Virus record (IMG/VR): IMGVR_UViG_3300031857_000001
Direction: 5' to 3' (one strand)
Origin: a virus
Taxonomy: Duplodnaviria; Caudoviricetes
DNA: 64,000 bases
Each line of letters starts with the position of its first letter. The stretch's first letter is position 1. This document shows, one piece after another, positions 1,553 through 60,062 of this stretch. Below the pieces are notes generated by a model. It ran no database searches and was not told where the DNA came from. It saw only the letters and a list, made by a program, of their open reading frames with translations. The position numbers and the translations under genes are program-made.

Positions 1553-3880
1553 ATGAAAAAAATCGTTTTATTACTCACACTTTGTCTATCCTTTATTCTC
1601 GGATATGGTCAATATGACTTATCCAAGAATATTGACAGACAAGTAATGGTGGTTCCACAAAAAGGTATGGAATCCCAAACTCAGGCGTTTATTCAGAGAA
1701 GTAACGCTCAGATTGTTGCTAATTTTGAGCAACTTGGATGGTATGTTGTATTACTACCTGAAAATTTAACTCAAGATTCATTCGTTAGGTCTTCCAAAGA
1801 CTTACCGTTTATTAAAGAGGTCTATAAAGACCAAAAGGTTGAAATGAAACTTGATTATATTCCAAATGATGTGGAATTTAATCAATGTTGGCACTTACGT
1901 CAAACGAGTGACAAAGACATTGATGCTGATGAAGCTTGGGATTTAGTTCCGGCAACTAATCCAACTGTTAGTGTTGCAATGTTTGATGGAGGTCTTGATT
2001 TAACTATTCCTGATTTGGCCGGTAACACAACAAATCCGTTTAATGCCGTTAACAGTACTACGAACATTCCTTATGTAAATGCCGAAGATAAACACGGAAC
2101 AACCTGTTCAGGTACTATCGCTGCAGTTACAAACAACAGTATTGGAGTTAGTAGTGTTGGTAATAATAAGGTTAAGGTAATGCCTGTTAACATTATGTCT
2201 CAGGTTTTTGCTGGAGGTAGTTTTTCTACTTCAGATGTGATTCAAATTAATGGCGTTAATGCGGCTATGGCTAATCCAACTTGTGTTGCAATTGCAATGT
2301 CATATGGTGGTTCATCTTATTCATCGGCCCTTGACGCAGCTTTCCAAGCGGCAAGAACAACGGCAAGAGGTGGAAAAGGAATGGTTGTGGTTGCCTCATC
2401 AGGTAATGGTTCTTCAGGAACTGCAAATCAATACCCCGCTAATTATAGTGGAGTTTGGGGTATCGGAGCAACATCATCAACTGACCTTAAAGCTAGTTTT
2501 TCTAACTTTGGTCAAATTTGTGATATATCCGCCCCTGGCACACAAATTAGAACTGTCGATAGACCAGGAACTGCAGGATATAGTACAGGTGATTATACCT
2601 CAATAAGTGGAACATCATTCTCTTGCCCGATATTTGCGGCTTCTGCTGCGTTTTGTTTTTACAAGAATTGGGAATTAACTGATGACCAAGTTTTACAAAT
2701 ACTTGCAACAACGGCTGAAAAAGTTGGGGGATATAGTTACACAAATAACTCAACTTGGCCACTGTCAACAAGAAGTAATGAACTTGGTTATGGTAGAATT
2801 AATTTAAGAGATGCTATTATTGCAACACCAAATCCAGGAGGAATTGTTCCACCACCACCACCACCACCAACTTTGGTTCATAACTTTTTAATTAACACTT
2901 TAACTGTAAATCCCGCAACTGTTACAGTTGGCTCTAATATTACAATTTCAGCAACAATTGCAACACAGAACCCAACGTATCCGGCAGTTGAAGTAATGAC
3001 TCAGCATAGATTATCAACTAATACAACTTGGGGTGACTCTGATGATATTATCATAGGTACCACAAGTGGTACATTAGGTGGTGGTGTAGCAACAGATGTC
3101 GAGACAATAACTTATAATGTTGGTAACATTACGGGGCTCAGATATATTATCAGTAGGGCTAATTTTATGGGAACTATTTCAGAAACTAATCCAAATGATA
3201 ATACAAGACAAGCAAGTTTCAACGTTACCCAACCAAGTGCCGCTGGTGCCGACCTATCAGTATCATTAACTATACCATCAACACCTTCGACCACAATTTC
3301 ACCAACTCAAACCACAGTTACTTTTCAGTGGAAAGTTACAAATACAGGAACAGTTCCAATTACATCATTTACTTGGGACAGAATGTGGGTGAATATTCCT
3401 GAAGCAACCAGAACTTGGCCTATACCCCCAAATGGTGCTTTTCCAGGTTCTTGGCAAGGTCCATTACTTCCGGGCCAGTGGATTTATCTACCGGGTGGAG
3501 GAACACCAACTAATCGAGTAAGTGTATCTTATTTATCGGCATCCGCGTGTTTTAGTGCGAACAGTTGTGCTTTACCACTCGGTTCAACAAACACTTTCAG
3601 ATTAAGAATTCTTACTGTAAATGGGGGAACAGGTGATAGTAACCTTGCAAATAACCAAGTTGAATGTACTGTAACAAGACTTGCAACTGCGGTTAACAAT
3701 GGAGATGTTATTGATACACCTGAAGTTAAATTTGTTGAGGTTAGACAGTTTAGTAATTTATATGAAAAACCAATTAGATACGGTAGCATTGATGAAGCGA
3801 TACTTGAAAAGGGACTTAATATAATTCATATCCATTACTCAGATGGAACAGTAGAAATCAGAAAGATTTCGGTAAATTAA
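1553..3880 (+). CDS. Secreted S8 subtilisin-like serine protease with prodomain, poly-Pro linker, CARDB/Ig-like domains and T9SS-like C-terminal tail
   Basis: Catalytic triad D ('MFDGGLD'), H ('HGTTCSG') and S ('GTSFSCP'); oxyanion 'SSGN'; signal peptide 'MKKIVLLLTLCLSFILGYG|Q'. Confidence 0.92.
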   Translation: MKKIVLLLTLCLSFILGYGQYDLSKNIDRQVMVVPQKGMESQTQAFIQRSNAQIVANFEQLGWYVVLLPENLTQDSFVRSSKDLPFIKEVYKDQKVEMKLDYIPNDVEFNQCWHLRQTSDKDIDADEAWDLVPATNPTVSVAMFDGGLDLTIPDLAGNTTNPFNAVNSTTNIPYVNAEDKHGTTCSGTIAAVTNNSIGVSSVGNNKVKVMPVNIMSQVFAGGSFSTSDVIQINGVNAAMANPTCVAIAMSYGGSSYSSALDAAFQAARTTARGGKGMVVVASSGNGSSGTANQYPANYSGVWGIGATSSTDLKASFSNFGQICDISAPGTQIRTVDRPGTAGYSTGDYTSISGTSFSCPIFAASAAFCFYKNWELTDDQVLQILATTAEKVGGYSYTNNSTWPLSTRSNELGYGRINLRDAIIATPNPGGIVPPPPPPPTLVHNFLINTLTVNPATVTVGSNITISATIATQNPTYPAVEVMTQHRLSTNTTWGDSDDIIIGTTSGTLGGGVATDVETITYNVGNITGLRYIISRANFMGTISETNPNDNTRQASFNVTQPSAAGADLSVSLTIPSTPSTTISPTQTTVTFQWKVTNTGTVPITSFTWDRMWVNIPEATRTWPIPPNGAFPGSWQGPLLPGQWIYLPGGGTPTNRVSVSYLSASACFSANSCALPLGSTNTFRLRILTVNGGTGDSNLANNQVECTVTRLATAVNNGDVIDTPEVKFVEVRQFSNLYEKPIRYGSIDEAILEKGLNIIHIHYSDGTVEIRKISVN

Positions 3881-3903
3881 AAAATAAATTTTATATATAA
3901 AGG

Positions 3904-3925
3904 GGAGGCGAGAGCCTCCTTTTTT
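3904..3925 (+). terminator. Rho-independent terminator
   Basis: GGAGGC-GAGA-GCCTCC-TTTTTT. Confidence 0.85.
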
Positions 3926-3933
3926 ATTTTATG

Positions 3934-3943
3934 GATATTTATA
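3934..3943 (+). promoter_or_regulatory. Putative late promoter GATATTTATA
   Basis: Lies immediately after the terminator, 16 nt before the ATG at 3960. Confidence 0.6.
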
Positions 3944-3959
3944 AAGAAAATTAATCAAC

Positions 3960-6900
3960 ATGGCATTTAATTATTATTATGATTTTGAGGACTGTACACA
4001 AATAGACCTCACAGGTAACCCAATAAACTATGTTGTAGGTTCTAATTATGTTTTAAATGAAGGTGAATATTACACTATTTTTAACGTATCGAGTCCAAAT
4101 CAACGAGTTTGTGGGGTAAATCTTACAGCATCAACCTCAACCGCTGCGACATATTATACTGAAGCTATTTATGAATATTCATCATGCACAACATGTTTAA
4201 GCGCTATAACCAACATAATATCCGTTTCAGGTTTAACTCCATTAAGTAGCGGAAATACGTTAACCTTAGTTGCTGATAGTAGATATATCAAAGGTGATAT
4301 AATCCATATAGATATTGTATACGACTCGTCTGGGGATTTAGTATTCATTAATACACCTGCATTAATAACTGGTATATCAGGATATACAGAGACTGGATGG
4401 ACAGTACCTAATATAATAGAATATGTACCTTATAAATCTTTTAAACAAGTTATTGAATCTAAGGGTGTTTATTATTTAATTTCGGATTGTTCTGGTGGTA
4501 CCGAAAGTATAATTTTAAGTAAGCAAGAGTTGTTATATCAAAATGCGGTTATTAACCTACCTTATGGTAATTCTCCTTGTAAGGTTATTTTAACCGCTTT
4601 AACTGAGGGAAATTATTCGGATATTTCTGGAGTTACAACTGTTTTAAATAGTTCTGTAATATATTCAAAGTGTGACCAATGTTTATCAAGTTTAGAATCG
4701 GCAGTTGTTGATGATGAGTTTGAACAAAATACCTACGACGCTCTTACGATTAGTGAATTGAAACAATTAACTGATGGGTCTATAGTGGTAGGAGGTTCAG
4801 AATTACAAACAGTGGATAATGGAGACTTATTTAATTTTGGTAATATTCTTAAGTTAAATCAAGATGGAAGCCCCAATTTAACTTTTAATCCAAATAGTCA
4901 AGGTTCATTAAATTTGAATGGAAGTACTTTTATATACTCAAATTATTCTGAAGATTTTAATTTAACTGGTAATTTTTCAATTGAATTTTGGTTTAAATTA
5001 GGTAATCACGGTACAGATGGTGGTATTATTTCATTTAAAGACGGTGATGATAATGGATGGGAGATTAGATTCGAAGGAGATGATAATTTCATAACATTTG
5101 ACTATAATGGTAATTTATTAACATCAACAACTGAACTGAATGCCAATGAGTGGTATAATATTGCGGTTGTGAATGATTGTGGTACAGATAATTTAATTAT
5201 GTACATTAATGGTAGTGATGATGTTACTACAGGATGTACAAGTGGATTAACCGCAAGTACTGAAACTATATTTAAAGTTGGGGTTAATAAATCCCTTAAT
5301 TCTTATGTTTCAGGTTTAATTACAAATGTTAGAATTGTTAATGGTGACGATAATTTTGCATATGACGGAACCTTTACCCCCCAAACTTCTCCATTAAGAA
5401 ATAGACAGAATGGTTATGGTAACGTTAGGAGTATTAGTCCTAGCGAAGTTGTTCTATTATTGAATTTTGAGGATAAATACAGGACACTTTTTGATACTAG
5501 TGTTTATAAAAAACCATTCTATGTTAAGAATCCGTCGGTACTTAAGATTGCTGAAAAATGTCGTTGTGTGAGATTTAGAAACACCGGTACAACTGTTCAA
5601 AATTTAACATGGCAAAAATGTTTTGAACCAGGTTTTGGACAAAATTCTTTGGTGACAGTTCCTATATTACCAGGAGAAACATTACCGTATACATGTGTAC
5701 AACAAGGAATTCTTTATCCAAGTAATTTTAATTATCCAGGAATAATAGCTGAAATTGGTATACTTTCTGATGGAAATTGTGTTCAAATAAGTAATACGGA
5801 ATTCCTTTGTCCCGGCCGTTGTAATTGCTATTCAGTTAAAAATAATACATCTGATGTCATTGAACTACAATATTATGATTGTAACAGAGATTTAATTACT
5901 GATATTTTTATAGCTCCTAATGACCCTGAAATATTAGTTTGTTCATTATATTTTATACCTTCTAATCTAACAATAGTAGACCAAAATTATCAATGTAGTG
6001 CGACAACTCAAACTTATCCTTTTGGATGGCAATGCGCTCCTCCGGTTGACCCAAGATGTGCTCCAATATATGTTGATTATTGTTATAACCAGTTTGCACC
6101 AAATAATAACGGAACTCAACCAGGACCAATAACCGCTTGGTATTCAACAGGTTTATTAGGTAATACTCAATTGAATTTAAATTTACCTTCTACAATAACT
6201 GTTAACCACAATGTCGGTGCTCGTTATCAAATAGATATTACTCATACTTTAAGCTATACTACAAATACGGGTAGACTATGGATTTTACACACTAATAGTA
6301 ACGCATATGTTTCTACTGTAGCGGCACCTTATTTAATCGATGAATGGTTTTTATTCTTTACTCAAGGAGTTGGATTTACTGTTACGTATAATAGAAGAAT
6401 AACTATCGGAGCCGCGTTAATGACCGGAACTATAAATTGGGGACCTGGTAGTGGTATGGCGGCTAGAGATAATACCACGTTAATTGTTAGTAGATATAGT
6501 CAGGTGTCAAGTACCTTTGCAACACCTACAAGTATTGTACAACTTAATATTGCCGCAGGTAATAACATTACCCTAACAACCGCACAGGTGACAACATTAT
6601 TCTCATTACCCGCCAATGGCTCTGTTATTACACTTAATGATGCACCTATTGATGGAATCAATAACCCAATTAATATTAGTTCAAAAATAGTAGTGTCAGG
6701 AGGTATGACATTAACGGATAACAATAGATTAATTATCAAGTGTAAGTTAGGTGCTAACCCTAGTGGTAATGTTGACCAAATATTATTACAATATACTTTG
6801 GCCGGAACATTAGAACATGCTCGTCGTTTGGACCCAATCGGACTTTCAAATCCAATTAATAGTGCTGTATTCTCATATGACAACCGAGTATTAATACAAT

Positions 6901-7118
6901 CAACAGCGGGAGCAAATCCTGTCGGATGGTCAGTACTTAGATATAATGGTACACCTACTGCAATGACTACATCACTGAGTAATCAAACGGTTCCTCTTCT
7001 TTTCCCTGGTCAATACACATTAACAGGACCAATGGGGGCTTCATCACCAAGAAGGGTTAGTATTGCTAATGCATGTCCAACTGTTGATTTACCTATAAAT
7101 GTTACAAGTATAAGTTAA
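3960..7118 (+). CDS. Large modular putative virion protein: YxxCxxC modules, one delta-60-like blade, LamG/concanavalin-like domain, Cys-rich modules, C-terminal propeller-like domain
   Basis: LamG-like 'FSIEFWFK...NEWYNIAVV...MYING...SGLITNVRI'; delta-60-like 'QLTDGSIVVGG...ILKLNQDGSPNLTF'; no signal peptide. Confidence 0.75.
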   Translation: MAFNYYYDFEDCTQIDLTGNPINYVVGSNYVLNEGEYYTIFNVSSPNQRVCGVNLTASTSTAATYYTEAIYEYSSCTTCLSAITNIISVSGLTPLSSGNTLTLVADSRYIKGDIIHIDIVYDSSGDLVFINTPALITGISGYTETGWTVPNIIEYVPYKSFKQVIESKGVYYLISDCSGGTESIILSKQELLYQNAVINLPYGNSPCKVILTALTEGNYSDISGVTTVLNSSVIYSKCDQCLSSLESAVVDDEFEQNTYDALTISELKQLTDGSIVVGGSELQTVDNGDLFNFGNILKLNQDGSPNLTFNPNSQGSLNLNGSTFIYSNYSEDFNLTGNFSIEFWFKLGNHGTDGGIISFKDGDDNGWEIRFEGDDNFITFDYNGNLLTSTTELNANEWYNIAVVNDCGTDNLIMYINGSDDVTTGCTSGLTASTETIFKVGVNKSLNSYVSGLITNVRIVNGDDNFAYDGTFTPQTSPLRNRQNGYGNVRSISPSEVVLLLNFEDKYRTLFDTSVYKKPFYVKNPSVLKIAEKCRCVRFRNTGTTVQNLTWQKCFEPGFGQNSLVTVPILPGETLPYTCVQQGILYPSNFNYPGIIAEIGILSDGNCVQISNTEFLCPGRCNCYSVKNNTSDVIELQYYDCNRDLITDIFIAPNDPEILVCSLYFIPSNLTIVDQNYQCSATTQTYPFGWQCAPPVDPRCAPIYVDYCYNQFAPNNNGTQPGPITAWYSTGLLGNTQLNLNLPSTITVNHNVGARYQIDITHTLSYTTNTGRLWILHTNSNAYVSTVAAPYLIDEWFLFFTQGVGFTVTYNRRITIGAALMTGTINWGPGSGMAARDNTTLIVSRYSQVSSTFATPTSIVQLNIAAGNNITLTTAQVTTLFSLPANGSVITLNDAPIDGINNPINISSKIVVSGGMTLTDNNRLIIKCKLGANPSGNVDQILLQYTLAGTLEHARRLDPIGLSNPINSAVFSYDNRVLIQSTAGANPVGWSVLRYNGTPTAMTTSLSNQTVPLLFPGQYTLTGPMGASSPRRVSIANACPTVDLPINVTSIS

Positions 7119-7134
7119 TTATTAATTATTACAT

Positions 7135-7193
7135 AAAAAAAGGAGGCCACTTAGACCTCCTTTTTTATTTTATAGATATTTATAAAGAAAAAT
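7135..7193 (+). repeat. 59-bp terminator+promoter cassette, copy A
   Basis: 58/59 identical to 11189-11247. Contains an AGGAGG..CCTCCT hairpin, a T-run and GATATTTATA. Confidence 0.9.
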
Positions 7194-7199
7194 TAAAAT

Positions 7200-10100
7200 A
7201 TGAATTATAGCGGAGCGCCAACTGGAAATACCTTCTCGATTGATTTACCTGAAGGTTTTAAATTTAATTTTTATGGTAAAGAATATGATACCGTATATGT
7301 TAACGCAAATTCTTACCTGACTTTGGACCAAGGGTCCGAATCAGGAGGTCTCATTTTACCCGACCAAATACCTTCTGAAATTGATTCTTCAGGTGTTTTT
7401 ATGTCAACTTATGGGGATTCAAACAACGATAACCAAACATATATAACCAGTGTAACCACAGGTTTAACAGATGATGACAATACTTTCACTGTAACAGTAC
7501 AAGGGGGTTATCAAAAATTAGGTGGTGGTAACCAGTGTTATTGTTACACAGTACTTTATAATCCCCCTCTTGATTCGCCTAATTATGACCAATTTTCATA
7601 TATATGGCCACCTAATACACCTCAACAAGTTATTCCATATCCCGAAACCATCTCATTGAGATATTTCGATTGTAAGAATGTTGGGGTGTGTGCCACAGGC
7701 ATCAACGCATTAGGAACTCAGTCTGTTACTTTAACCGCAGGAGTTCCACAACAGATATGTTCGTATCCCAGTTATTTAACCAGTCAGGTGTTCGTTAATA
7801 CCACCACTGGTCAGTACGAACAACCATCCCCTGGAGTTTGTGGTTGGATGACATTTTTACCGAATGACGTACCTGGTGTTGCAACTACTGATTTCAATAA
7901 TCCCCCCAATAGTTTTATTACATTTACACCGGTTTTATCACAAGGACTACAATCTCTATGTGTTAGTTCAGATGGTTTAACAAGTTTGGACTCTCAGTTT
8001 TATATTAATGCCGCAACCGCTGTTTGTCAAATACAACCACCACCAACTAATTGCCAGTGTTACATGATATACAATTCGGCGGGTTCACAGAGACAGGCAT
8101 TTTTCACAGCTTGTTCTTCATTAAATCCAAATTCTGTAACATTGAACCCACAAGGTAGTGCTAGAGTATGTGTTAATGCGACTACAAATTTCACATTTAA
8201 TGGAGCGGGTGTTGTGGTATCACCTTTGGGGCCTGACGGAGTACAGTCATGTGTTAATAATAATAGTTGTGCAGGACCAAATTGTTTTTGTTTTAGTGCA
8301 TATAATGAAGATAACCAAACTGGTGAAATAACCGGAATTGTTGATTGTGCAACAGGAAACGCACTTCAACCATTTCCAATGTTCCCATCATTTGGTTATA
8401 CTCAGACAAGTCCTGTAAAAATATGTTCTAGAACTTTTCCTAGTTCATCAAGTAATGTAACAATAGCTTCTACATTTTCAGCTTGTACTGGACCTTATAC
8501 CATAAATAATGGGGCTCAAGAATATAATTGTCCTCCATGGGAAGAACCACCATTACCTTGTTATTGTGTACAAGTTTCAAATAATGCACCTGTTTTCAAT
8601 AACACAGTTTCAGTAACTGGTGGTTGGGGTCGATTAAGATATAGAGATTGTAGTGGTGATATTGTAAATGAAGCTTATGACCTAAATGTACCACCTAGAA
8701 GTAGATTTAGGTTATGTATCCAAGAAATATTGGATGTTAGTCCGTCTCCTTCGTCGTTTAATAATTCTCAAGGAGTAAGTATCAGAAATGACCAGATTTT
8801 GTGTCAAACAAATAATGACGGAGATACTGTTTGTCCATGTCAATGCGTTCGGGCGACGAGAATCAATACAGTTCCGGGTTCCATTGGCGGATATAGGTAT
8901 AAAGTTTGTCAATTACCCAACAGTAACGCTTCAGAAATTATAGGAATATTATCGGATGGAAACCCGCAAGATTTTGTTTGTACTGAAATGTACGGGACTT
9001 CGGCAATTACAGTCAATTTCATAAATAACACATCATTTACTTTTTTAGGTACCTCATGTAATTCTTTATTCTCTTTTTGCGAACCAACACCAACTCCAAC
9101 ACCTACTAAGACTAAAACACCAACTCCTACAAGAACTAGAACTCCGACCGTAACAAGGACTCCGACCCAAACAAGGACTCCGACCCAAACAAGGACTCAA
9201 ACTCCAACTGTAACTAGAACTCAAACTCAAACTAGAACTCAAACTCAAACTAGAACTCAAACTCCAACTGTAACAAGAACTCCAACCCAAACTAGAACTC
9301 AAACTCCAACTATAACAAGAACTCAAACTCAAACTAGAACTCAAACTCCAACAATGACATCAACTATGACTAGAACACCTTCACAAACACCTTTACCACC
9401 TTTACCACCTTGTTCAGTTTTAATTAATTCGACAAATACAAATAGTTTATGGGCATATAATGTAACAAATAATACAGTTATACCGTTATTCTTACCTGGA
9501 GTATTTACAACCCCATATACTGATGTTGCCGCGTCTCAAGACAACAATATACTTGTTTTAGGTTACAATTTATTTACCGCGAATCCAACAATCCAATACT
9601 GGGGTATCGATTTTGTTGCCGGAAGTATTATTTCGGGACCAACTACCACAACATTCAATGTAACGGGTATTGGCGAAGGTTTAGGGTTGAACTTGACAGG
9701 AGACAGAATCTATGTATCAAGAACGGTTAATGGAACCCAAAGTATTTTAATATCAAACTACACAGTTAACCCAATAACTAGTAATACATTATTAACTTTA
9801 CAAGCAGGAAGAACTGTTTCAGGTGATATCCTTAGAACAACAACAGGTAAATTAATATTCACAAGTAGAGATAATACTAGCTTGTACATTGAGCAATGGT
9901 CTACCGATGATGTTACGGCGACATTTGATGGTGATTTTAATTTAACGGGATTAAATATGTTGTTTAATATTAATGTTGAATCTGATATATTCATACAAGA
10001 TGGTGTGTTTTATATAACTAGAGGTGCTGGTACTAGTGAGAGTGTTTGGACTTTAAGTCAGGACGGAGGTACTTTACAAGAAATTTATACACAAATGCCA

Positions 10101-11174
10101 ACAAATGGTCTAATAAGAGGGGCCACATCGTTCCCTGAATGTAACGATTGGGAATTCACATTTGTTGACCCTAGATGCAGACCACTTGTAATATTTGCAC
10201 CATGTCTTAATGACTCTCCAGTGGCGGGAAATATTTTTAGTATTTACGCTTTAAATCCGGCAGGTAATAGCTTACAACAAATTAATTTCACACCAGGTAT
10301 TTCATGGGCTGGAGGTACTGGTAATAGATACAGTATGGATATAGCTCACACTCTAAATTACGATAGTAACACTGGTAAAATGTGGATTTCACTCAGACAG
10401 ATAACTAGTTCTAATCCTCAATATAACATTTTTGAATATAATTTGAGTGTTACTTTAGATGGAATATTCGGTGTAACTTATGTTAGACGAATTAATTTAC
10501 CTTTAGGTTTTATTATAGGTAAAGGTCTAGCAGTTAGAAATAATAATACTCTTATTACAAGTAGAGAACCTGCTGGAGTAACAAACCATGTCGAAATAGT
10601 TGAGTTGGATATTAGTAATCCTGCAGACCCATTAAATTTGACAAATGCTCAAGTTACTGAAATTCTTACATTACCTATTGGAGGTGATACATTTGTAACC
10701 ACAGGAACTCAAGGAATTATTACAATGATTGCCAATAGAAGAGTAGTAGTTACTGGTGACATGGTATTAACAGATGAAGGAAATTTAATTATAATGGGTA
10801 TGCAAATGCTGGCAACTGAAGGATGGGGTCAAACTGATAACGCTAAATGTTTGTTACAATATGATTACGCGTCAGGCGTTATAAACTTTATAAGAACTTA
10901 TCCTTGGAATGGTGTGGGTCATCAGTTTAGTCCTGTTATTTATAACGATAGTCTATTTGGTATAGGGTCAGGGGCAAATGATTGTAATATTCCATTCGCA
11001 TATCGACCGATAAATATAACTAATGGAAATTATGCTGGTACTTCATATAACGTTCCAGCACCTACTAATTTTGTTAACATAGGTCCTTATGGTGCGTCAT
11101 CACCTAGATTTATAGGAGGTACAAATCCTTGTATAACAACAAATGGTAATTTGATACCAAACATTGTAAATTAA
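7200..11174 (+). CDS. Large modular putative virion protein: N-terminal NIDO-like segment, several CxC Cys-rich modules, Thr/Pro stalk, two propeller-like domains
   Basis: 'IDLPEGFKFNFYGKEYDTVYVNANSYLT' at the N-terminus, a (TR/TQ/TP)n tract, and domains shared with neighbouring genes. Confidence 0.75.
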   Translation: MNYSGAPTGNTFSIDLPEGFKFNFYGKEYDTVYVNANSYLTLDQGSESGGLILPDQIPSEIDSSGVFMSTYGDSNNDNQTYITSVTTGLTDDDNTFTVTVQGGYQKLGGGNQCYCYTVLYNPPLDSPNYDQFSYIWPPNTPQQVIPYPETISLRYFDCKNVGVCATGINALGTQSVTLTAGVPQQICSYPSYLTSQVFVNTTTGQYEQPSPGVCGWMTFLPNDVPGVATTDFNNPPNSFITFTPVLSQGLQSLCVSSDGLTSLDSQFYINAATAVCQIQPPPTNCQCYMIYNSAGSQRQAFFTACSSLNPNSVTLNPQGSARVCVNATTNFTFNGAGVVVSPLGPDGVQSCVNNNSCAGPNCFCFSAYNEDNQTGEITGIVDCATGNALQPFPMFPSFGYTQTSPVKICSRTFPSSSSNVTIASTFSACTGPYTINNGAQEYNCPPWEEPPLPCYCVQVSNNAPVFNNTVSVTGGWGRLRYRDCSGDIVNEAYDLNVPPRSRFRLCIQEILDVSPSPSSFNNSQGVSIRNDQILCQTNNDGDTVCPCQCVRATRINTVPGSIGGYRYKVCQLPNSNASEIIGILSDGNPQDFVCTEMYGTSAITVNFINNTSFTFLGTSCNSLFSFCEPTPTPTPTKTKTPTPTRTRTPTVTRTPTQTRTPTQTRTQTPTVTRTQTQTRTQTQTRTQTPTVTRTPTQTRTQTPTITRTQTQTRTQTPTMTSTMTRTPSQTPLPPLPPCSVLINSTNTNSLWAYNVTNNTVIPLFLPGVFTTPYTDVAASQDNNILVLGYNLFTANPTIQYWGIDFVAGSIISGPTTTTFNVTGIGEGLGLNLTGDRIYVSRTVNGTQSILISNYTVNPITSNTLLTLQAGRTVSGDILRTTTGKLIFTSRDNTSLYIEQWSTDDVTATFDGDFNLTGLNMLFNINVESDIFIQDGVFYITRGAGTSESVWTLSQDGGTLQEIYTQMPTNGLIRGATSFPECNDWEFTFVDPRCRPLVIFAPCLNDSPVAGNIFSIYALNPAGNSLQQINFTPGISWAGGTGNRYSMDIAHTLNYDSNTGKMWISLRQITSSNPQYNIFEYNLSVTLDGIFGVTYVRRINLPLGFIIGKGLAVRNNNTLITSREPAGVTNHVEIVELDISNPADPLNLTNAQVTEILTLPIGGDTFVTTGTQGIITMIANRRVVVTGDMVLTDEGNLIIMGMQMLATEGWGQTDNAKCLLQYDYASGVINFIRTYPWNGVGHQFSPVIYNDSLFGIGSGANDCNIPFAYRPINITNGNYAGTSYNVPAPTNFVNIGPYGASSPRFIGGTNPCITTNGNLIPNIVN
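9086..9400 (+). repeat. Coding 18-bp-period tandem repeats (TRTQTQ/TRTPTQ)
   Basis: Units such as GACTCCGACCCAAACAAG x2 and ACTAGAACTCAAACTCAA repeated. Confidence 0.85.
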
Positions 11175-11188
11175 AAACTATGTATTTT

Positions 11189-11247
11189 AAAAAAAGGAGG
11201 TCACTTAGACCTCCTTTTTTATTTTATAGATATTTATAAAGAAAAAT
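11189..11247 (+). repeat. 59-bp terminator+promoter cassette, copy B
   Basis: AGGAGGTC-ACTTA-GACCTCCT hairpin, T-run, GATATTTATAAAGAAAAAT. Confidence 0.9.
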
Positions 11248-11278
11248 AAAATAGTTATCACAATAAAAAAAAGATAAT

Positions 11279-14200
11279 ATGGAAATTACACCATTGAATT
11301 GTACAGAGCCATGTGTGAATATAACTCCAAGTAATTTTGTAGTTGATTCACCGACAATTAATATCACGAATGTTTCAAAATTTGTACCGTATAACGAGAA
11401 AAAACAGTGTGGCGAATTATACCTACAATTCGACCAAGTATATACTTACGATGTTGTAAATAATGTAAGTTATTCAATATTCACTTATCCGGAATACAGT
11501 AACTTTAACCAGCCAAGGTCGGTGTCTCGTACATTAGATAAGATGTTTTTAACTTGTCGAATTTCAGGTGATACGTTTATTAAAGAATATGATATTACTT
11601 ATAGTCCGCTGACTATAACATTTAATAGAGAAATTTATGCGGATTTAAATCCAAATACAGCTTGGCTCGAGGTAATGACCGCAATTGATAACAATACTTT
11701 GATAAGTTTCTCTTCTGTTTCTTACAGTGAGGTTTTTGTGATTGAAGTAAATATAGAACTACCAATTGCCGTAATAACTAGAAAATTCGATTTTATACCC
11801 GGTTCCAGCTTTATACGAGGTAATCCAATATTAACTACCGATAAAAAGTTAATTATCGCTAACTCACATAGTGGTAACACATATATAACTCAATACAATT
11901 ATATTAACGGAGAACTTGAATTGGACCTACAGGTTAACTTATTTTTAAGTCATTTGTTTATATCAAATGGAGAGCTCCATTTGGTCACTTATTTTCAAGG
12001 AGTTAATACTTTATATAAAATAAATAAGTTTCACCCTTACGATATAAGTTTTATCCGAATAATGGATATTACACCGTATATTCAACGTATGTGTCAAATA
12101 CCTCAATGTAACGATGTTTCGTTGATACCCAAAGCGCAACCAGTTAAAAAAACACAGTGTGGAGTTTTCTATCTGTCAGAAGATAAGGTGTATTCTTATA
12201 ATCCTATAAACAATACAAGGACATTAATATTTACTTACCCTGACTATTCTATAGGTAATCTACCGATTCAAATATCACGTACGCTAGATAAAATGTTTTT
12301 GTTAATCGGTACAGGCGCTGGAATTACCCCATATTTAATAAAAGAATATAATATAACATACAGTCCATTAACAATTACATATAACAGAGAAATTCAACTT
12401 GATTCTCCTCCAATCGGAGGGTGGTTTTTAAATATGACAATTATTGATGAAACCACTTTAATACTTTATTGTGGTTCATTTACTGAAGGTGTGTATGCTT
12501 TACAAGTGGACATATCACTACCTATTGCGATTTATACACCTGTAATAGAACTATTTTCAGATAGAAGACCTTTGCTCGGTTCAATATTTACCACGAATAG
12601 TAAGTTAATTGTAGTAACTAACGATATCAATGGTTCTCCCTCTTATATTAGTCAGTTTAACTATCCTAGTGGTGAACTTGAGATAGATATACCGATACCA
12701 GTCTCCGCCGGTAATCCTCTTGGTATTTTTATATCAAATAATGAACTTTATTATATGGGGGTTGGTTCTACGTCAGTACCTTTACATAAAGTTAATTTGA
12801 CTTACCCTTACACAGCCCCTGTGGTTCAATATATTGAGGGTGATTTTAATGTTTTTATAACAGGAGCTGCTCAAATACCTCAATGTTGTGATGTTTCATT
12901 TAGGACTCAAGCCGAATCTGTGAAAAATGTTTTCATTTTGGATGGTCAAAATGAAAATTATATATATGAATTAAAAATAGATGAAACGGTTAATTTAAAA
13001 TCAACATACTTTAAGTCAGGAATTATGACTTTACGTTATTCTCCAGACAGCATTGAAAATCAAGTGTGTTTGAATATAAATCCTGCTTTAAATAACTCAG
13101 GTGAGACCGTATTTGAATTGGTTGATTGTTATTATGATTTACCCCCAACAACAATATCAGGAACTTGTTCTTGTGGTACTTATGATTGTTCAGGTTTAAA
13201 TCTTTATCAAAATACAACTTGGGTTGTAACAATTCCAATAACCAAAAAGAGCGGTACCCCTTTAGTTGGACTGATTACTCCTTTGGTGTATATTGAATCA
13301 TATTTAGGTACTCCTGTTACTTTCGAATACTACTATTATGGTACATACGGTGTTGATTCTGCCGAGATATCTTTCACATTAGACCAAACTAATTATCGAT
13401 TTAACGGTGATGTTGAAAACTATAACATATATGCGGACGGTAGTGGTCCTGATAATGTGGTTATGGTGGTAACCGCCCCATACGGTGCAAAATGGAATGG
13501 AAGTATTAATTGTGCGACTGATAGTAGTTTATTGTCATATACTTATACTTTCTATAAAGAAAATCCAGGAAAAGTTGATTTAAAAGTAGATAAAAACGCA
13601 ATAGTAGGTCAAATAAACCCTTTTGGAGGTATTAGTGATGGTAGTGATACATATTCGGAGACATTCAGTAATGCGGGTACCACCGATATACCTATTGACT
13701 CCGGAGGATATTTTGATTTTGGAGTTTTTAGTTCAGATTCACCATTTTCAAACGGTAATGGACTTAGCCAAGACTTTTACAACAATGATTCTTATGTAAA
13801 ATCAATAGAAGTACAACAAGATGACAGTTTATTGGTTGGGGGTAAATTCAATTACTATAATAATGATTCAGTTTCTAATATTGCAAAAATAAAAGTTGAC
13901 GGAACAATTGATTCATCGTTCAATTTTAATTATTCATTTACGAATGTTAATACGATATCAGCACAACGTGATGGAAGTGTAGTTATTGGCGGTGAATTAC
14001 CGGTATTAGATTGTAACGAGATATCAATAACTTCGGTAACATATAATGAAGAAACTAGTAATGGTTCATCATATACTATAGGATTCACTCCATTATACAA
14101 TCCTGACACCGACTTTTTTGCGGTAGAATGGTCTGTTGATAATTTTGAAACCAGTGCTTTAGGTCAATACGTCTTAGCCCCTTTTGGTACTAGTGAATAT

Positions 14201-17200
14201 ACTTGGCTTAGTAGTTATGAATTTACCACATGGAACTTATTTTCAGGTAGTAGTTCTAATGTTTACTTTAGAATTATTAAAACTTGTCATTTAAATTTAG
14301 CCGGCGTAAGTTATTCTGACCTTGTTTATTCAAATGTATACACAGTTTCTCACACCGGTTCATCATGTCCAAGTGTTGTTTTATTTTTAAGTGGGAATGT
14401 CGGAACTGTTGCATATACCATTAGTAAGTATGACGTAACTGCACAAACAACAACGGTTTTGACTTATCATGAGTTAGGTTATGGCTCGGCAAAAAAACCA
14501 AAAAATATTGCGTACGTTTATGATAATGTGACTGAAACTGGTAAAGTTTGGGTTTCATGTTCACTATATCGATTTGACAGTCAATGTGTGGAATGTTATA
14601 GTGAATCTATAAGTGGTAATTCAGAAATACATGAATATGAAATATTGGATTCTAATTTTTCATTAAGTTATCCTCCTGTAATAAAACCAATAATATCACC
14701 AGATGGAGATTATCATAATATTATTGGGCAATCATTGGCGGTGTTCAATGAACAATATTTGGTGACTACCGTAGATTACTTTACTGTTGGGTCACCAAAT
14801 TTTGTTACAAATATTGTTGATAAATACTTTGCTTTGATTGATATAACAGCAACTGGTGATAGCTTAACTTTTGAATCATCAGTTGAAAGTGTTGGTTTTT
14901 ACGGTATAACATTCCCACAAAATATTCCATACGAAAATTGCGGAGATATTATAAAAACAAATAATGACACATTAATTTACGGATACAACAAAAAACTATA
15001 TGAGATTGATATTTTTTCAGGACTAATTTTATATGAAACTAACCAATCGTCAATGTCAAATTTTGACTTAAGAGGTATATTTGTTTATGATAACGAAATA
15101 TTTGTTAATACTAGTTTTCTTGACGTTTACAAGTTAACAGGAAATATTACGAATCCATTTTCATTATACGATTCAGGAGTTGGAGGCAGTCGAGGCTCAT
15201 CTTCAAATTATATATGTGATACGGTAAGTCTATCTGCTTATGGTGATTGTTATTGCTATAAGTTCATAAATACTGGTTTCACTAATCAACAAATCGAATA
15301 TATTGATTGCGGAGGATATACAAAAAAACTCAAAATTAGTACTGGAAAATATATAAAAAGTTGTTTAAGAAGACTAGTATCCGTTGGAACAAACGTTAAG
15401 TCAAGTATAGTCAGTTTTTGCGTAAACAATACATGTCCTCCATTTGGATATGGTGGTACTAATATAGTAAAAACTAATTCATTCGGACAATTCGATTATG
15501 ATTTCATCAATAAGGCCGGTATAGGATTAGACGGGCCTGTGAATATTATTAAAGAGTGGAAACCCGGAGTTATAATCGTTGGGGGTAAATTTACCAACTA
15601 TAACGGAACTAATGTTAGAGGTATAGTGGCATTAAATTTAGATGGAACTGTTCATTCTAATTTTAAAGGAGGATTTAACTTTGATGAATCAACGCCTAAC
15701 GTAACTGATATTATAGTTTTATCGGATAGTTCATTAATTGTATTTGGAGGAGGAGACTCTGAAAATTGGTTAATTAATTACCAAGGATTGGCGATTGCTA
15801 CAAATATTATAAAAATAAATCCAAACGGTTATAGAGTTAATTCTTTCGCGGCCGGAGATGGATTTGATGAAGGTGTAACATCGGCAACATTACAATCTGA
15901 TGGTAAAATTGTTGTTGCAGGATTATTTGATTGTTATGACGATGATAATGGTAATCATTGTGGTTTAGATTATATAATTAGATTAAACTCTGACGGAACC
16001 TACGATAGTACATTTGTAATGAATGTTGGTTTTAACAATAACGTTAACAAATTAATTAATACTTCAATTGATGATATTCTTGTAGGAGGCTCGTTTGATA
16101 CTCCAACAAGTAAATTAGTTAAACTACGTTCAGGGGGACAAATTGATTTATATAATTTTATAACTTGTGATGGAATCACTGGATTCACTTATGCTCCGTC
16201 AAATATAACCAATGGTACTGTATTATTGGCTAACATAAATGAAACTTCTACTGTTTGTGGTACTGTTGGTAATGTTGTTACATCTGGTAATACAAACATT
16301 TATTTTTCTGATGGTAAAATAACTTACTCAAGTTGTTCAGAATGTGTGGTTAATTACCAAGTAATATTGTTAGTTAGAGAAAAAGGAAAAAAAGACCAAA
16401 TTTTCCAAAAGCAAATGACAAAGGCTCAAATAGATAAAGTTTTATCTGACGGACCTATTTTCTCAACAGGAGGACCAGAAACATATGAGATTTTAGATTA
16501 TTGGTTAGGTTCATTAACTCCATCCACGGGTGTTGAGTCTTTCATTGAGGTAACCCCAACACCTAACCCTACTGTAACACCTACCATAACACCTACTAAG
16601 ACAAAAACCCCGACACCAACAAAAACTCCAACTAACACATCAACCCCAACTAAAACAGTAAACGCAACTCCTGAGCCAACCGCGACTCAAACTGCAACAC
16701 AGACTAAAACTAAAACTCAGACTAGAAGTCAAACACCTACTAATACTGCAACACAGACAAACACTCCTACTCAAACACAAACACCTAATGTAACTTCAAC
16801 TCCTAACCCAACTCCAACACCTACAAAAACTCCTACAAAAACTAAAACAATGACTATGACTCAAACACCTACTAATACTGCAACACAGACAAACACTCCT
16901 ACTCAAACACAAACACCTAATGTAACTTCAACTCCTAACCCAACTCCAACACCTACAAAAACTCCTACAAAAACTAAAACAATGACTCCTACTGTAACTA
17001 GAACGGAGAATTATGTACCACCAACACAAACTCCAACACCAAGTAACACACCAACTAGAAGCGTCACACCAACCAGAACACCAACTAAGACAAAAACACC
17101 GACTGTAACACCAACTAAGACAAAAACACCGACCGCAACAACTACTAAGACGCCAAATGTGACTCCAACAAATACAAAAACACCAACTAAAACTAAGACA

Positions 17201-17299
17201 CCAACACCAACGGCAACATCGGCGTTAGAACCACTTACAATAGTTTACACATTAACCGACCCGAATAATTTCAATTTAAAGGGTGTAATAATAAAATAA
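11279..17299 (+). CDS. Giant (2006 aa) modular putative virion protein: three propeller-like domains, delta-60 repeat propeller, Cys modules, C-terminal Thr/Pro stalk
   Basis: Delta-60-type repeats such as '[11 protein letters not shown]...[14 protein letters not shown]', tandem N-terminal domain duplication, and a TPT-rich tail. Confidence 0.8.
16729..16987 (+). repeat. Perfect direct repeat, 127 bp identical, period 132 bp (44 aa)
   Basis: 16729-16855 equals 16861-16987, encoding [42 protein letters not shown]. Confidence 0.9.
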
Positions 17300-23253: not shown

Positions 23254-24717
23254 TCATAAATCCTCAAAATATTTCAAATTGACTATTTGAAATTTTATGG
23301 TTCTTTTATATGTATTTATTTCCCCACTACTTTCAACTTTCATATCGATATAATATTCATTTGGTATTTTATCACGAGTATCAAATATGAAATAATATTC
23401 GTTTGGGGTTCTATTTAATTTTGTCCAATCCTGTACTTGAACTTCTGTTTGACCTTCTCTAACATATACTCTATAAAAAGCGTCAACATTAGGTAATAGT
23501 TTTTGAGTGGTATAGGCTTGTTTTATTATAACACCTACTTTTCTAATATCGGTGTTATAAATCTTTTCATCTTGTTTTAATCCATAGAAATCAAATCCGT
23601 ATAATTTAGGGTCTTGAGATTTTGGTCCGATTTGGATTGATTTTTTCATCGGATACACCGAAAAAGTGTTGGTTACATCACCAATATCAAATCCATTTAA
23701 AATTAGATTTGTCCATTTGTCAGTAAACATACATGGAGTTTTATATCCCGCCAAAGGAGGTAATGTGATTTCGTAAACACCCTTGGTTCTTCTACATGAA
23801 GTTAAACCTGTTAATCCGACAATACCTCTCCCATAAGCGTCCAAAATTGACACAGTTGGATTCACATCCAAATTTATTGGGTTTCCATTATCGAATAGAT
23901 AAAGGTATAGTTTATTAACTTTACCTAACACAAATTCATTCCTATCGTCTTCGATTAAATCATCATATGTTGTTTCCAAAAATGGTTCGTAAAAAGTTTG
24001 GGTGTGTCTTGTAAAAAATTGAGTTTCGTAAGCTTCAGTTAATCCTGCTAAATTCTCAATTTCAGGTACATATGCAATTCCCCATCCTGAAACACCACTC
24101 AACGAACCATTTAAAATTGAATTAATTTCATTGGTCATATCAAAACTAATGTTTTCATTACCAAATTGAAAATGTTGTGTGTCAATAATGGTTAAACCAC
24201 TGTAATTAACAAACCCCTGATTTTTGTTATTATAAAGTCCTGGTTCAGACCATAAATCAATAGTAGTTCTTTGATACCAATTAGTAGGTCTTACTGAGTA
24301 AGATTCGTCAAATTCACTAAATTCGTAAACCAAATCCCCGTAATCATATCCAACACCCTCATCCCAAATTTGGTTTGTTGGTATTCTAAATAATATTAAA
24401 TCAAATGACGTTGCTCTTTTTCTGTTTTGTGATGTGTTTTGGTTTAATAAGTCATCACCACCAAAAAAACCTGTGTTTGTCATTCTTAAAACATGTCTAA
24501 CACTATCATTACAATCTAATGTAATGGTCCCATAGTCGACTTTTTCCGTTAATAAAGAAAGGTCTAAATCGAAAATGAAACGACTAAATCCTTCAGGATA
24601 TTGACTAATGGTGGTTGACCCATAAAATAGTTCTGTAACAGGATTTCTTCCCGTGTTTACATAACTTCTATATATGATGGTGTCGTTTTTACTGAAATAA
24701 GAGTTATTTATTGACAT
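23254..24717 (-). CDS. Putative virion structural protein
   Basis: 487 aa, beta-rich, adjacent to the gp5-like gene, with TATTTAT upstream (24733-39). Confidence 0.5.
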   Translation of the reverse strand: MSINNSYFSKNDTIIYRSYVNTGRNPVTELFYGSTTISQYPEGFSRFIFDLDLSLLTEKVDYGTITLDCNDSVRHVLRMTNTGFFGGDDLLNQNTSQNRKRATSFDLILFRIPTNQIWDEGVGYDYGDLVYEFSEFDESYSVRPTNWYQRTTIDLWSEPGLYNNKNQGFVNYSGLTIIDTQHFQFGNENISFDMTNEINSILNGSLSGVSGWGIAYVPEIENLAGLTEAYETQFFTRHTQTFYEPFLETTYDDLIEDDRNEFVLGKVNKLYLYLFDNGNPINLDVNPTVSILDAYGRGIVGLTGLTSCRRTKGVYEITLPPLAGYKTPCMFTDKWTNLILNGFDIGDVTNTFSVYPMKKSIQIGPKSQDPKLYGFDFYGLKQDEKIYNTDIRKVGVIIKQAYTTQKLLPNVDAFYRVYVREGQTEVQVQDWTKLNRTPNEYYFIFDTRDKIPNEYYIDMKVESSGEINTYKRTIKFQIVNLKYFEDL

Positions 24718-24739
24718 TAAAATGTTTTATCAATAAATA

Positions 24740-26353
24740 TCAATTGATTCTGATTTCTTGATTCAGAATAGTATTTTCAGCGTCGGCAAGTAATTGGTCT
24801 ATTTCTAAAGTTGTCTGACCGTTACCTGATGAAACAGGAACTGGAGGACTTGGAGCAACTGGATGAACGTGACCTTTAACAAATTCAAATATCTTTCTAA
24901 GTAGTTTGATTAATTCATCACCTCTAACTGTTGGGTATGTTTTTTCTTGAATTCCGCCAGGTTTAGTGAATTCAATATCAGGTATACCGTATATTGTATT
25001 TGTTAAATCAATTCTTCCCTTAGGACCTGTAATATTGTGAGATAATAAATATAATTTTTGCCCGCCTAATACGGAATAAGTAACCGGACTAGAAAAAACA
25101 TCAATTTTAGTATCTTGTCTCCTGTTAGTTTTAGTAGAAGGTCCTATTGTAGGTATATTATTTGTGTTATTAGAAACTACAAAACAACCGGTTTGAAAAT
25201 TGTTTGATTTGACCTTTATACCTTTTTGTAATTTGAAATAATTAACACTTTCTTGAACGTCACTTGGGTCGACATGTTCTGATAATGTTAGACCTTCTTG
25301 ATATGTAATTTTAGATGGTGAAACTGCAAATGGAAACCTATCGGCATCTTGGAAATTAGACCTACTATTCACAACACTATCATTATATAATACAGTACCA
25401 TCAAATACACTATCGATAAATGTATTAAATGTATAAATTACTTCCTCAATTGTTTTATTTGAAAATCTAATACCCTCTATTTCATTTCCGTAATCGGTCC
25501 CCGAAGTTAAAGTACTAATTGACCCCAATTTAAAATTATCAGTGGTCGCACTTGTAGTCTCTAACATTCTATGGAGTGTTATACTACCTGAAAAATTATT
25601 GGCCGAGTTTCCTAATACACCACTATCAATATTCCAAATTATAATTCTTTTTAATTTAGTTATAACTTTACTAACATCAAAGTTGGTTTCAGTTTCTCCT
25701 TGGACCGTGGACGATAAAAAATTAGATAATTGCAAAAAAGCCCTACTAGTTTTTGATTTAGGATAATCTTGGGGAGTTAAATCACTAGTTACTGTTTTAC
25801 CCGCCCTTATTAGAACTTCTTCAGGTTTAACAATAACATCGGCACTACCTCTACCTAACAGAGCGTTATCACCCGGCTCGGGAAATATTCCAGAACTAAC
25901 ATCATCGTTATATACATTAAAATTATCTTTTAAATTTATACCTAATTTATATCTATCACCAGCCGATAAAATAGATTCAGATGACGGTCTCGTTTCAAAA
26001 TCAGAATTCATCGGGGACGAGAAAGGCCCTTGGATATAGAACTGATTACCAAACAAAAACTTTTTATTTTGATAAATTATATGGACATATTCCCCTTCAT
26101 CAGGGACTTGACTTATATAAAAAGGTAATAAAGGTAGAAATACAAAAATATCATTCTCACCCCACCAAAATTCTGGTTTTAAATCCCTTTCATCATCACG
26201 TAAATATGTTTTGTTAACAGATTTCAACATCTCAGAAACATACTCACTATAAATAGGTTTCGCTCTAACCCTACCTAACATTTTAGGGTCATATCTACTT
26301 ATTACTTCACCAGGAAATATTATTTGATGTTCATTATTTTTATTTATGTTCAT
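24740..26353 (-). CDS. Baseplate hub/spike protein, gp5-like
   Basis: N-terminal OB-fold-like 'GEVISRYDPKMLGRVRA...PLLP...VPDEGEYVHII' and C-terminal HxH 'GHVHP'. Confidence 0.65.
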   Translation of the reverse strand: MNINKNNEHQIIFPGEVISRYDPKMLGRVRAKPIYSEYVSEMLKSVNKTYLRDDERDLKPEFWWGENDIFVFLPLLPFYISQVPDEGEYVHIIYQNKKFLFGNQFYIQGPFSSPMNSDFETRPSSESILSAGDRYKLGINLKDNFNVYNDDVSSGIFPEPGDNALLGRGSADVIVKPEEVLIRAGKTVTSDLTPQDYPKSKTSRAFLQLSNFLSSTVQGETETNFDVSKVITKLKRIIIWNIDSGVLGNSANNFSGSITLHRMLETTSATTDNFKLGSISTLTSGTDYGNEIEGIRFSNKTIEEVIYTFNTFIDSVFDGTVLYNDSVVNSRSNFQDADRFPFAVSPSKITYQEGLTLSEHVDPSDVQESVNYFKLQKGIKVKSNNFQTGCFVVSNNTNNIPTIGPSTKTNRRQDTKIDVFSSPVTYSVLGGQKLYLLSHNITGPKGRIDLTNTIYGIPDIEFTKPGGIQEKTYPTVRGDELIKLLRKIFEFVKGHVHPVAPSPPVPVSSGNGQTTLEIDQLLADAENTILNQEIRIN

Positions 26354-26565
26354 TTTGTTTTGGTTCTATCTTGATATTCTGATAAAAGTTTGTTGTATAA
26401 AACTTCTAATTTATCTAAATGATTAGTTAAATCAATAATTCTTTCTTTAGTAAAATTAAAGTCTTTTTGAATAAAATCCATCGCAAAAGTTAAATCCTTA
26501 TTTGACGATGATTTATATTCTTTTATTATCCTACTAGTTTTTTCCGAATCTTTTATATCAATCAT
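26350..26565 (-). CDS. Small helical hypothetical protein
   Basis: 4-nt overlap coupling with the downstream gene. Confidence 0.65.
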   Translation of the reverse strand: MIDIKDSEKTSRIIKEYKSSSNKDLTFAMDFIQKDFNFTKERIIDLTNHLDKLEVLYNKLLSEYQDRTKTK

Positions 26566-26567
26566 AG

Positions 26568-28481: not shown

Positions 28482-28486
28482 AATTA

Positions 28487-28861
28487 TTATTTTTTCATTT
28501 TATATGATTCATCCATTTTGGATAAATCTTTCTCCATTAGACTTTGAATTACTTCATCATCAACATTTAAGTCAGACAGTGTAAATGATTCTTTAGACGA
28601 ATTACTTTTTTCCCAAATACTAGATTGGAGTTTTGATAAACTTAATTTTTTCTCAACACAATCATTTATGATTTTTTGTTGTTCTTTGATGATAGGACCA
28701 AGAACTGTCATGTCCTCGGTCTCTTTCATTAACGAAAGCATTTTGTTTTGAATCCTAATTGCGGTATTTCTTTGTTCAACTAATTCATTGTAGATTTCCT
28801 GCATAAGAGCAAGTATCGACTCTTGAGTTAGATTAATTTCTTTTTTTTGTGGTCTGGCCAT
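28487..28861 (-). CDS. Coiled-coil hypothetical protein
   Basis: 124 aa; GATATTTAT lies 4 nt upstream of the ATG. Confidence 0.7.
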   Translation of the reverse strand: MARPQKKEINLTQESILALMQEIYNELVEQRNTAIRIQNKMLSLMKETEDMTVLGPIIKEQQKIINDCVEKKLSLSKLQSSIWEKSNSSKESFTLSDLNVDDEVIQSLMEKDLSKMDESYKMKK

Positions 28862-28886
28862 AATAATAAATATCTAAACGCATTTT

Positions 28887-30439: not shown

Positions 30440-30449
30440 ATTTTTAAAA

Positions 30450-31511: not shown

Positions 31512-31512
31512 A

Positions 31513-58016: not shown

Positions 58017-58032
58017 AAAGTATATATAAAAT

Positions 58033-60051: not shown

Positions 60052-60062
60052 TGATTTAGTAT

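Follow-up and report, generated by a model that had tools for sequence, protein, structure and literature searches.

A seven-bladed delta-60 β-propeller appears to be divided between two giant genes in the 64,000-nucleotide stretch of viral DNA (Duplodnaviria; Caudoviricetes; IMG/VR record IMGVR_UViG_3300031857_000001) that we analysed as a whole and call the window. A single blade lies in gene 3960, which encodes protein P0001, and six blades lie in gene 11279, which encodes P0003. Comparisons with related phage sequences indicate that one ancestral propeller gene was very probably divided by nested insertion and cassette-mediated fission. Structural modelling gives the blade of P0001 and the blades of P0003 about an even chance of reassembling in trans, and the account that combines the split history with reassembly is favoured here with slightly better than even confidence. 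The window carries three giant same-strand genes downstream of a nuclease and a subtilase:

3960-7118, plus strand, gene 3960, encoding P0001 (1052 aa)
7200-11174, plus strand, gene 7200, encoding P0002 (1324 aa)
11279-17299, plus strand, gene 11279, encoding P0003 (2006 aa)

The blade of gene 3960 (blade 1) and the first blade of gene 11279 (blade 2) are ~8.9 kb apart, a distance that includes one whole extra gene and two gene breaks. We built a family-specific hidden Markov model (HMM) on 2,344 blades from ~120 delta-60 proteins, and a six-frame scan of the 64-kb window of this 267-kb phage detected no blades outside genes 3960 and 11279. No polypeptide of the window contains the full set, P0001 having a single blade and P0003 the other six, whereas the unsplit relatives have seven in one chain, in agreement with the first-pass annotation of the window, which had added one blade and six to a single propeller of seven.

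Relatives were found by an exhaustive profile-free search with residues 1-520 of P0001, followed by mapping; a single-sequence scan of IMG/VR returned nothing, and the matches there came from an alignment-based scan. In P0170 (1259 aa), one open reading frame (ORF) encodes three modules with the motif YxxCxxC (Y-modules) and a "velcro" strand ahead of seven contiguous blades, followed by a fourth Y-module, which carries inserts of the NIDO-like and LamG types, and by a tail domain. The same layout is found in P0070, P0056, and P0062 (1669-1698 aa), which possess an extra complete N-terminal propeller. P0070 (1,669 aa) is encoded on a 299-kb T4-like phage contig that is syntenic with the window, and its residues 465-791 match gene 3960 (E = 1.7e-17) and its residues 879-1152 match gene 11279 (E = 2.5e-25) in tblastn. 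This two-gene match, obtained with the very check that the first-pass annotation had proposed, a search of related jumbo phages for one uninterrupted ORF, is the strongest single sequence result pointing to a split history. Since two independent contigs, one of 299 kb and one of 237 kb, both carry P0070, an assembly chimera is unlikely to explain the unsplit relatives. In P0075 and P0123, blade 1, LamG, and blades 2-7 are located in one ORF, and these proteins represent an intermediate form with LamG as the only insert. The collinearity is extensive: residues 3-318 of P0001 align with 54-364 of P0170, residues 3-487 of P0001 align with 498-997 of P0075, and each blade of P0003 aligns in register with one of blades 2-7 of the unsplit forms, down to features specific to individual blades. 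An early reading of the pieces as independent mosaic modules was abandoned in view of the collinearity with P0170 and P0075 and by the one-ORF relatives. The annotation would have abandoned a split gene if the six blades closed alone and no relative carried the pieces in one ORF; such one-ORF relatives exist.

The split form is also found outside the window. Orphan-blade proteins like P0001 include P0006, P0007, P0008, P0009, P0279, and P0281, and P0282 corresponds to the six-blade P0003. In the 108-kb IMG/VR contig G001 and its near-twin G002, the order is subtilase, P0281, cassette, and P0282. P0281, an ORF of 3,998 aa, contains Y-modules, blade 1, LamG, a NIDO-like domain, and many further modules, with no other blade; P0282, an ORF of 2,668 aa, contains the same connector as P0003, blades 2-7, the blade-3 insert, an extra insert in blade 7, the fourth Y-module, and the tail domain, and its C-terminal 22 residues match those of P0003. 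The G001 lineage is only ~41% identical to the window in its first giant gene, yet it shows the same 1 | 6 split over adjacent genes, so the partition is older than the divergence of the two lineages. No member of this family was found among cultured phages in GenBank, PHROGs gave a match to the PT linker only, and we found no literature on this delta-60 family, which is annotated only as "uncharacterized delta-60 repeat protein".

The features of gene 3960 are as follows:

3960..4694, plus strand, unit of three Y-modules (P0001 residues 1-245), delimited by alignments and conserved in relatives
4695..4742, plus strand, β4-like "velcro" strand AVVDDEF (residues 246-261), which precedes blade 1 in all relatives in the alignment
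4743..4898, plus strand, orphan delta-60 blade, probably blade 1 of the ancestral seven-bladed propeller (residues 262-313), assigned by HMMs and collinearity
4932..5519, plus strand, LamG domain (Laminin_G_3; residues 325-520), identified by PF13385 and located in the same place as the LamG insert of P0075 and P0123
5556..7088, plus strand, Cys-rich CxC modules and, after them, a 265-aa module at the C-terminus that P0002 also has (residues 533-1043)

The three-Y-module unit, for which no family exists in Pfam or Atlas, directly precedes the propeller in the alignments of unsplit relatives. The orphan blade was recognised by three profiles: Pfam DUF5122 (PF17164) matches residues 272-309 below its cut-off (E = 0.073, 13.8 bits), TIGR02608 matches residues 267-311 (E = 0.01), and the family-specific blade HMM matches residues 267-313 (nt 4758-4898; independent E-value 3.9e-7, 23 bits). 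Scores of 51-56 bits were obtained for the orthologous blades of P0009 and P0075. LamG starts immediately after the blade and scores well above its cut-off (PF13385, residues 331-461, E = 1.5e-18, 67.8 bits against 27.6); the single blade running into LamG, as first annotated, is thus confirmed. The mean pairwise identity of blade 1 is 0.40, compared with 0.44-0.47 for the flanking domains and 0.29 for the less conserved velcro strand. Judging from these alignments, blade 1 is not decaying, as it keeps its motifs and is about as conserved as its folded neighbours. In the AlphaFold2 (AF2) model of P0001 residues 1-520, the velcro strand and blade reach a predicted local distance difference test (pLDDT) value of 37-53, whereas the Y-modules (~80-90) and LamG (mostly ~80-90) are well predicted. 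Such low values are expected for a fragment that is not a folding unit, and the model indicates that blade 1 is not autonomous.

P0001 itself is mosaic. Its three Y-modules are closest to those of P0279 (60-74% identity) and its blade 1 and LamG are closest to those of P0006 and P0007 (50-62% identity), which implies that recombination took place somewhere between the third Y-module and blade 1. A BLAST match between P0001 and P0003 that apparently spanned LamG proved on inspection to consist of the blade alone.

The six-blade partner, gene 11279, is organised as follows:

11279..13735, plus strand, N-terminal β-rich modules and a region of unknown nature (P0003 residues 1-819)
13736..13795, plus strand, connector (residues 820-839, including DSPFSNGNG at 820-828), placed by alignment
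13796..13999, plus strand, blade 2 and the first two strands of blade 3 (residues 840-907), from the blade HMM and AF2 (pLDDT 74-93)
14000..15442, plus strand, 481-aa insert in the β2-β3 loop of blade 3 (residues 908-1388)
15443..16159, plus strand, the rest of blade 3 and blades 4-7 (residues 1389-1627)
16160..16513, plus strand, fourth Y-module and "tail" domain (residues 1628-1745), 61% identical to P0282
16526..17296, plus strand, PT-rich linker and a short C-terminal end common to P0282 (residues 1750-2006)

The blade HMM locates the six blades of P0003 at residues 842-889, 891-906 plus 1394-1414, 1430-1470, 1478-1532, 1537-1589, and 1599-1624, and the protein matches the DUF5122/delta-60 repeat family (PF17164, TIGR02608) at 71.7 bits against a Pfam cut-off of 27. 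Pfam assigns DUF5122 to the blades of this family, and WD40 matches are faint and occur in relatives. The best pairwise matches of residues 840-907 are blades 2 and 3 of the unsplit relatives, and across residues 1389-1627 the pLDDT is ~90 or above, dropping to 55-83 in blade 7. The connector and six blades that had been annotated at 13790-16140 were therefore recovered; the blades are not contiguous, however, because the 481-aa insert, which contains an Ig-like module, a β-rich module, and a CxC module, interrupts the second of them at a point spanned by six residues in unsplit relatives. A homologue of this insert is present in P0282 (E = 2e-22). The connector, conserved in P0282 as NSPIINKNGFTKDLL, aligns to the β4 strand of blade 1 in unsplit relatives and is a second copy of that strand. 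Within the N-terminal region (residues 1-819), a relative, P0282, was found for residues 551-914 only; no relative of similar length was found for residues 1-825, and a search with residues 1-1720 was swamped by generic delta-60 proteins.

The fourth Y-module (residues 1628-1692) follows the last blade directly and is conserved in relatives; together with the tail domain, it is also located 3' of the propeller in the unsplit forms. The Y-modules are indeed present at both outer ends, three in P0001 and one in P0003, as the annotation had noted, but as ancestral flanks of the propeller they predate the split. Although the upstream parts are very different, P0003 (window 17219-17296) and P0282 (L015 8378-8443) end in ~22 nearly identical residues, which may be a conserved attachment or recognition tail.

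Three cassettes mark the gene breaks:

3881..3959, plus strand, cassette before gene 3960, with a terminator hairpin and the late-promoter-like TATTTATAAAG
7119..7199, plus strand, cassette at the break between genes 3960 and 7200, from alignment with the other cassettes
11175..11278, plus strand, cassette at the break before gene 11279, from alignment with the other cassettes

The cassettes 5' of all three giant genes are near-identical when aligned, which upholds the annotated cassettes at the gene breaks, and the same cassette also exists in relatives (L001 2850-2905 and 5985-6045; L015 340-385). The positions of the breaks vary. P0008, P0009, P0279, and P0281 have no break at the point equivalent to that between genes 3960 and 7200, and in them LamG is fused to the NIDO-like domain. 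In L001 a cassette stands between these two domains, and in the window extra modules and a cassette do. The break before gene 11279 is also present in G001. These alignments indicate that gene-break positions are fluid among relatives and that the cassette is conserved.

The gap between blades 1 and 2 wholly contains the middle gene:

7200..11174, plus strand, gene 7200 (P0002), with a NIDO-like N-terminal domain, CxC modules, a PT linker, β-rich modules, and the shared C-terminal module

The first-pass order of blade 1, LamG, NIDO, and blades 2-7 holds, except that no split of NIDO between genes 3960 and 7200 is visible. The NIDO-like domain is whole, begins at about residue 10 of P0002, and aligns from its start to relatives (P0008, P0009, P0279, and P0281) in which it is fused to the end of LamG. 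The presumed NIDO part at the C-terminus of P0001 is instead a different module of 265 aa, which is also C-terminal in P0002 (P0001 residues 696-1043 against P0002 residues 989-1315, BLASTP E = 1e-29). The NIDO lead itself came from a language model only, through a neighbour cluster in which 38% of members have NIDO (score 0.92), and Pfam NIDO (PF06119) gave no match on this domain even at E = 10. The 265-aa module spans residues 696-970 of P0001 (window 6045-6869) and 989-1247 of P0002 (10164-10940), and its HMM finds one copy in P0007 and three in P0281, with no Pfam family; it may be the part that anchors these proteins.

The one-ORF relatives, the LamG-only intermediate, the syntenic P0070, the conserved 1 | 6 partition, and the moving gene breaks together make the division of an ancestral gene very probable. 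The ancestor of genes 3960, 7200, and 11279 would have been a single phage gene of ~1,300-1,700 codons encoding three Y-modules, a seven-bladed delta-60 propeller, a fourth Y-module, and a tail domain. The loop after blade 1 would first have taken in LamG and then a growing stack of modules; lastly, two terminator-promoter cassettes would have entered the insert. Such a course would leave blade 1, the Y-modules, and LamG in P0001, and blades 2-7, the fourth Y-module, and the tail in P0003.

In the proposed reassembly, blade 1 of P0001 would insert between blades 7 and 2 of P0003 after translation and close a seven-bladed ring, which would act as a non-covalent fastener uniting two giant multi-domain proteins. 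The AF2 model of P0003 residues 815-1650 shows six confident blades (pLDDT ~74-96), a weaker blade 7, and an N-terminal β4-like strand that is left unplaced. The best structural matches of this model are seven-fold WD40-type propellers, and it superposes on the open six-bladed Seh1 (Z = 19.9, root-mean-square deviation 2.6, 246 aligned) and Sec13 (Z = 18.9, root-mean-square deviation 2.8, 240 aligned). A Foldseek search with the 836-aa model returned mainly tandem propellers and is uninformative on blade number. We modelled a complex of three chains, P0003 residues 815-909, P0003 residues 1387-1645, and the partner P0001 residues 246-322, with alignments that we supplied. The complex scored 0.80 in all three runs, compared with 0.02 for the best of three controls; it passes a mark attained by 58 of 80 complexes with solved structures and by 2 of 110 pairs that were mismatched, in a calibration unlike this three-chain set-up. 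Agreement on contacts between the runs is at least 53%, and the partner has a pLDDT of at least 52. The confident contacts join residues 262-281 of P0001 with residues 838-853 (blade 2) and 1588-1613 (blade 7) of P0003, that is, β1 and β2 of the P0001 blade with β1 and β2 of blades 2 and 7, which line the empty slot of the seven-membered ring. As split-gene halves tend to pass by their likeness to solved propellers, the predicted complex shows compatibility and not binding; the fold complementation suggested in the first-pass annotation has withstood modelling to that extent. On balance, the chances are about equal for and against a recently evolved, natural "6+1" split propeller in a phage, with fragments that serve as a snap fastener for two separately translated fibre proteins.

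Several points weigh against the account of a split and reassembled propeller. With regard to history, blade-by-blade pairwise scores do not single out blade 1 as the counterpart of the P0001 blade, which is so assigned by its position, and the β4 copy in the connector hints that the third giant gene may have come from a contiguous-type ancestor cut inside blade 1 instead of arising by simple growth of the insert. With regard to the models, the P0001 blade remains at a low pLDDT of 53-58 in the complex, the opening of the ring was deduced from the list of structural matches and not from coordinates, and the alignments for both AF2 and the complex include seven-bladed unsplit homologues that may impose seven-fold geometry. 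With regard to the proteins, P0003 and P0282 both keep their own β4-like strand 5' of blade 2, so that on paper this strand, five full blades, and a three-stranded blade make a six-bladed ring closable by velcro. Furthermore, P0007, which is closest to P0001, keeps blade 1, yet no DUF5122 match is on record for the third giant gene of its contig, so that lineage may lack a six-blade partner. In designed propellers, one blade sequence can form rings of differing blade number, and the designs Cake8, Cake9, and Cake10 are among the Foldseek matches of the 836-aa model.

The β4-like strand kept in P0003 and P0282, the contig of P0007, and the variable blade number of designed propellers lend their weight to the alternative in which the six blades of P0003 close on themselves through the β4-like strand and the blade of P0001, like those kept in P0006 and P0007, is a relic that serves as a spacer or extension between the Y-modules and LamG. 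We consider this possible but rather unlikely: AF2 leaves the strand that would act as velcro unplaced (pLDDT 32-40) and assigns reduced confidence to blade 7, the top 50 structural matches include the open Sec13 and Seh1 and no recognised six-fold closed propeller, and blade 1 keeps its motifs and conservation, yet finds no confident fold alone or against LamG. A second alternative assigns blade 1 another partner, with several P0001 chains forming a ring or blade 1 docking on a different propeller, for instance the extra N-terminal one of proteins of the P0006, P0007, and P0075 type. A lone unit of β4 and a four-stranded blade is the kind of piece able to form oligomeric propellers, as in oligomeric lectin propellers; in P0006 and P0007, blade 1 shares its chain with a complete N-terminal seven-bladed propeller. 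The 64-kb window contains no other propeller, however, and the N-terminal one of P0007 is complete as it stands, its own velcro included, which makes this alternative improbable. Least tenable of all, and dismissed by us as very improbable, is that the one and the six blades have no common origin and were brought together by module shuffling with their total of seven a coincidence, for although the locus is highly mosaic (the Y-modules and the blade with LamG of P0001 have different closest relatives, and an Ig-like and CxC module occurs in two different host domains in G001), a single ORF of a syntenic phage spans both pieces in order, a LamG-only intermediate between blades 1 and 2 exists, and the 1 | 6 partition recurs in a ~41%-identical relative.

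The module of G001 is ~200 aa in length, and its two copies are 57% identical (E = 1e-72), one in the Y-module unit of P0281 (residues 149-341; L007 10439-11017) and one in blade 7 of P0282 (residues 1086-1284; L015 3695-4291). It resembles a module spread by copy and paste, and similar pieces form both ends of the blade-3 insert of P0003. Cassettes and copy-pasted protein modules may drive the fast diversification of such loci.

The source of the window is a giant T4-like lake phage, an assignment based on collinearity and capsid-protein identity with the 299-kb T4-like contig, which carries Gp23, the prohead protease, and PhoH; the two are 76% identical in PhoH and 95% identical at the C-terminus of the capsid protein. 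The late-promoter-like cassettes, the lack of signal peptides, the LamG, NIDO-like, and Cys-rich modules, the PT linkers, and the nearby head genes and secreted-type subtilase suggest that the giant proteins are probably late-expressed, virion-displayed, adhesin-like fibres. In every relative whose sequence covers this flank, the S8 subtilase, which has a signal peptide (window 1553-3880; L001 573-2831; L002 1619-3889; L007 7589-9913), lies directly 5' of the first giant gene; the pair forms a conserved unit, and the protease might process the giant proteins. A nine-gene block with PhoH, glycosyltransferases, and others (window 23272-33082, minus strand; L018 98-9962; 32-76% identical) is collinear with the 299-kb relative, yet inverted relative to the propeller locus. 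In addition, reprolysin-like (M12B) metallopeptidase domains are present in three consecutive genes (window 56238-63998), and a weak match to ribosomal protein S21 adjoins the head genes of the syntenic jumbo phage (L018/L019 24751-24939).

β-Propellers are a textbook case for the growth, breakage, and reassembly of repeat folds. To our knowledge, hardly any natural propeller is divided over two polypeptides apart from those of the ancient Sec13/Seh1 coats, for which no unsplit ancestor survives. The related phages, by comparison, appear to keep the whole series, from the contiguous gene through the insert of one domain to the split with variable break points, so the route from domain insertion to gene fission would be directly readable and could be tested with short constructs. 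Very large receptor-binding or decoration proteins may, as this series suggests, be broken into separately expressed, re-associating pieces. If the six blades close alone, the locus would still represent a natural change of blade number from seven to six.

Compared with the unsplit phage delta-60 proteins, one of which (P0070) is in a syntenic genome, the proteins of the window have the same modules in the same order; the propeller is contiguous in one gene in the former (1,259-1,698 aa) but is cut after blade 1 here. Nested domain insertion is seen in the LamG of P0075 and P0123, in the 481-aa stack within blade 3 of P0003, and in the insert within blade 7 of P0282; however, the largest insert of the window contains stop codons, terminators, and promoters, so that its host domain is no longer one polypeptide. 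In the case of chaperone-usher donor-strand exchange, to which the proposed complementation had been likened, an incomplete β fold is likewise completed from another chain. In pili, however, one strand completes an Ig-like fold and a polymer results, whereas here the donated piece would be an entire four-stranded blade that completes a ring a single time, and Pfam scans found no pilin, chaperone, or usher family; the Sec13-type "6+1" arrangement is the better analogy.

In that arrangement, the open six-bladed propeller of Sec13 or Seh1 is closed by one blade from Nup145C, Sec31, Sec16, or Nup85, and the velcro strand comes from the six-blade partner (PMC2922654). The model of P0003 superposes on both proteins, and the complex model seats the P0001 blade between blades 7 and 2. 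The two systems differ in several ways. The phage blades belong to DUF5122 and not to WD40, with no sequence homology, which makes the relation one of analogy and not of membership. The phage partner is β-rich, with Y-modules and LamG, and has no ACE1 helical domain, so that neither the WD40 nor the ACE1 hallmark is present. The donated piece is a full four-stranded blade with a velcro-like strand in the phage, compared with three strands in Sec16. Furthermore, the phage split would be a recent fission of a gene that is still intact in relatives, with putative binding of the fragments. The locus offers a new variation on two known themes, trans-completed propellers and nested domain insertion, and its evolutionary intermediates are preserved with unusual completeness.

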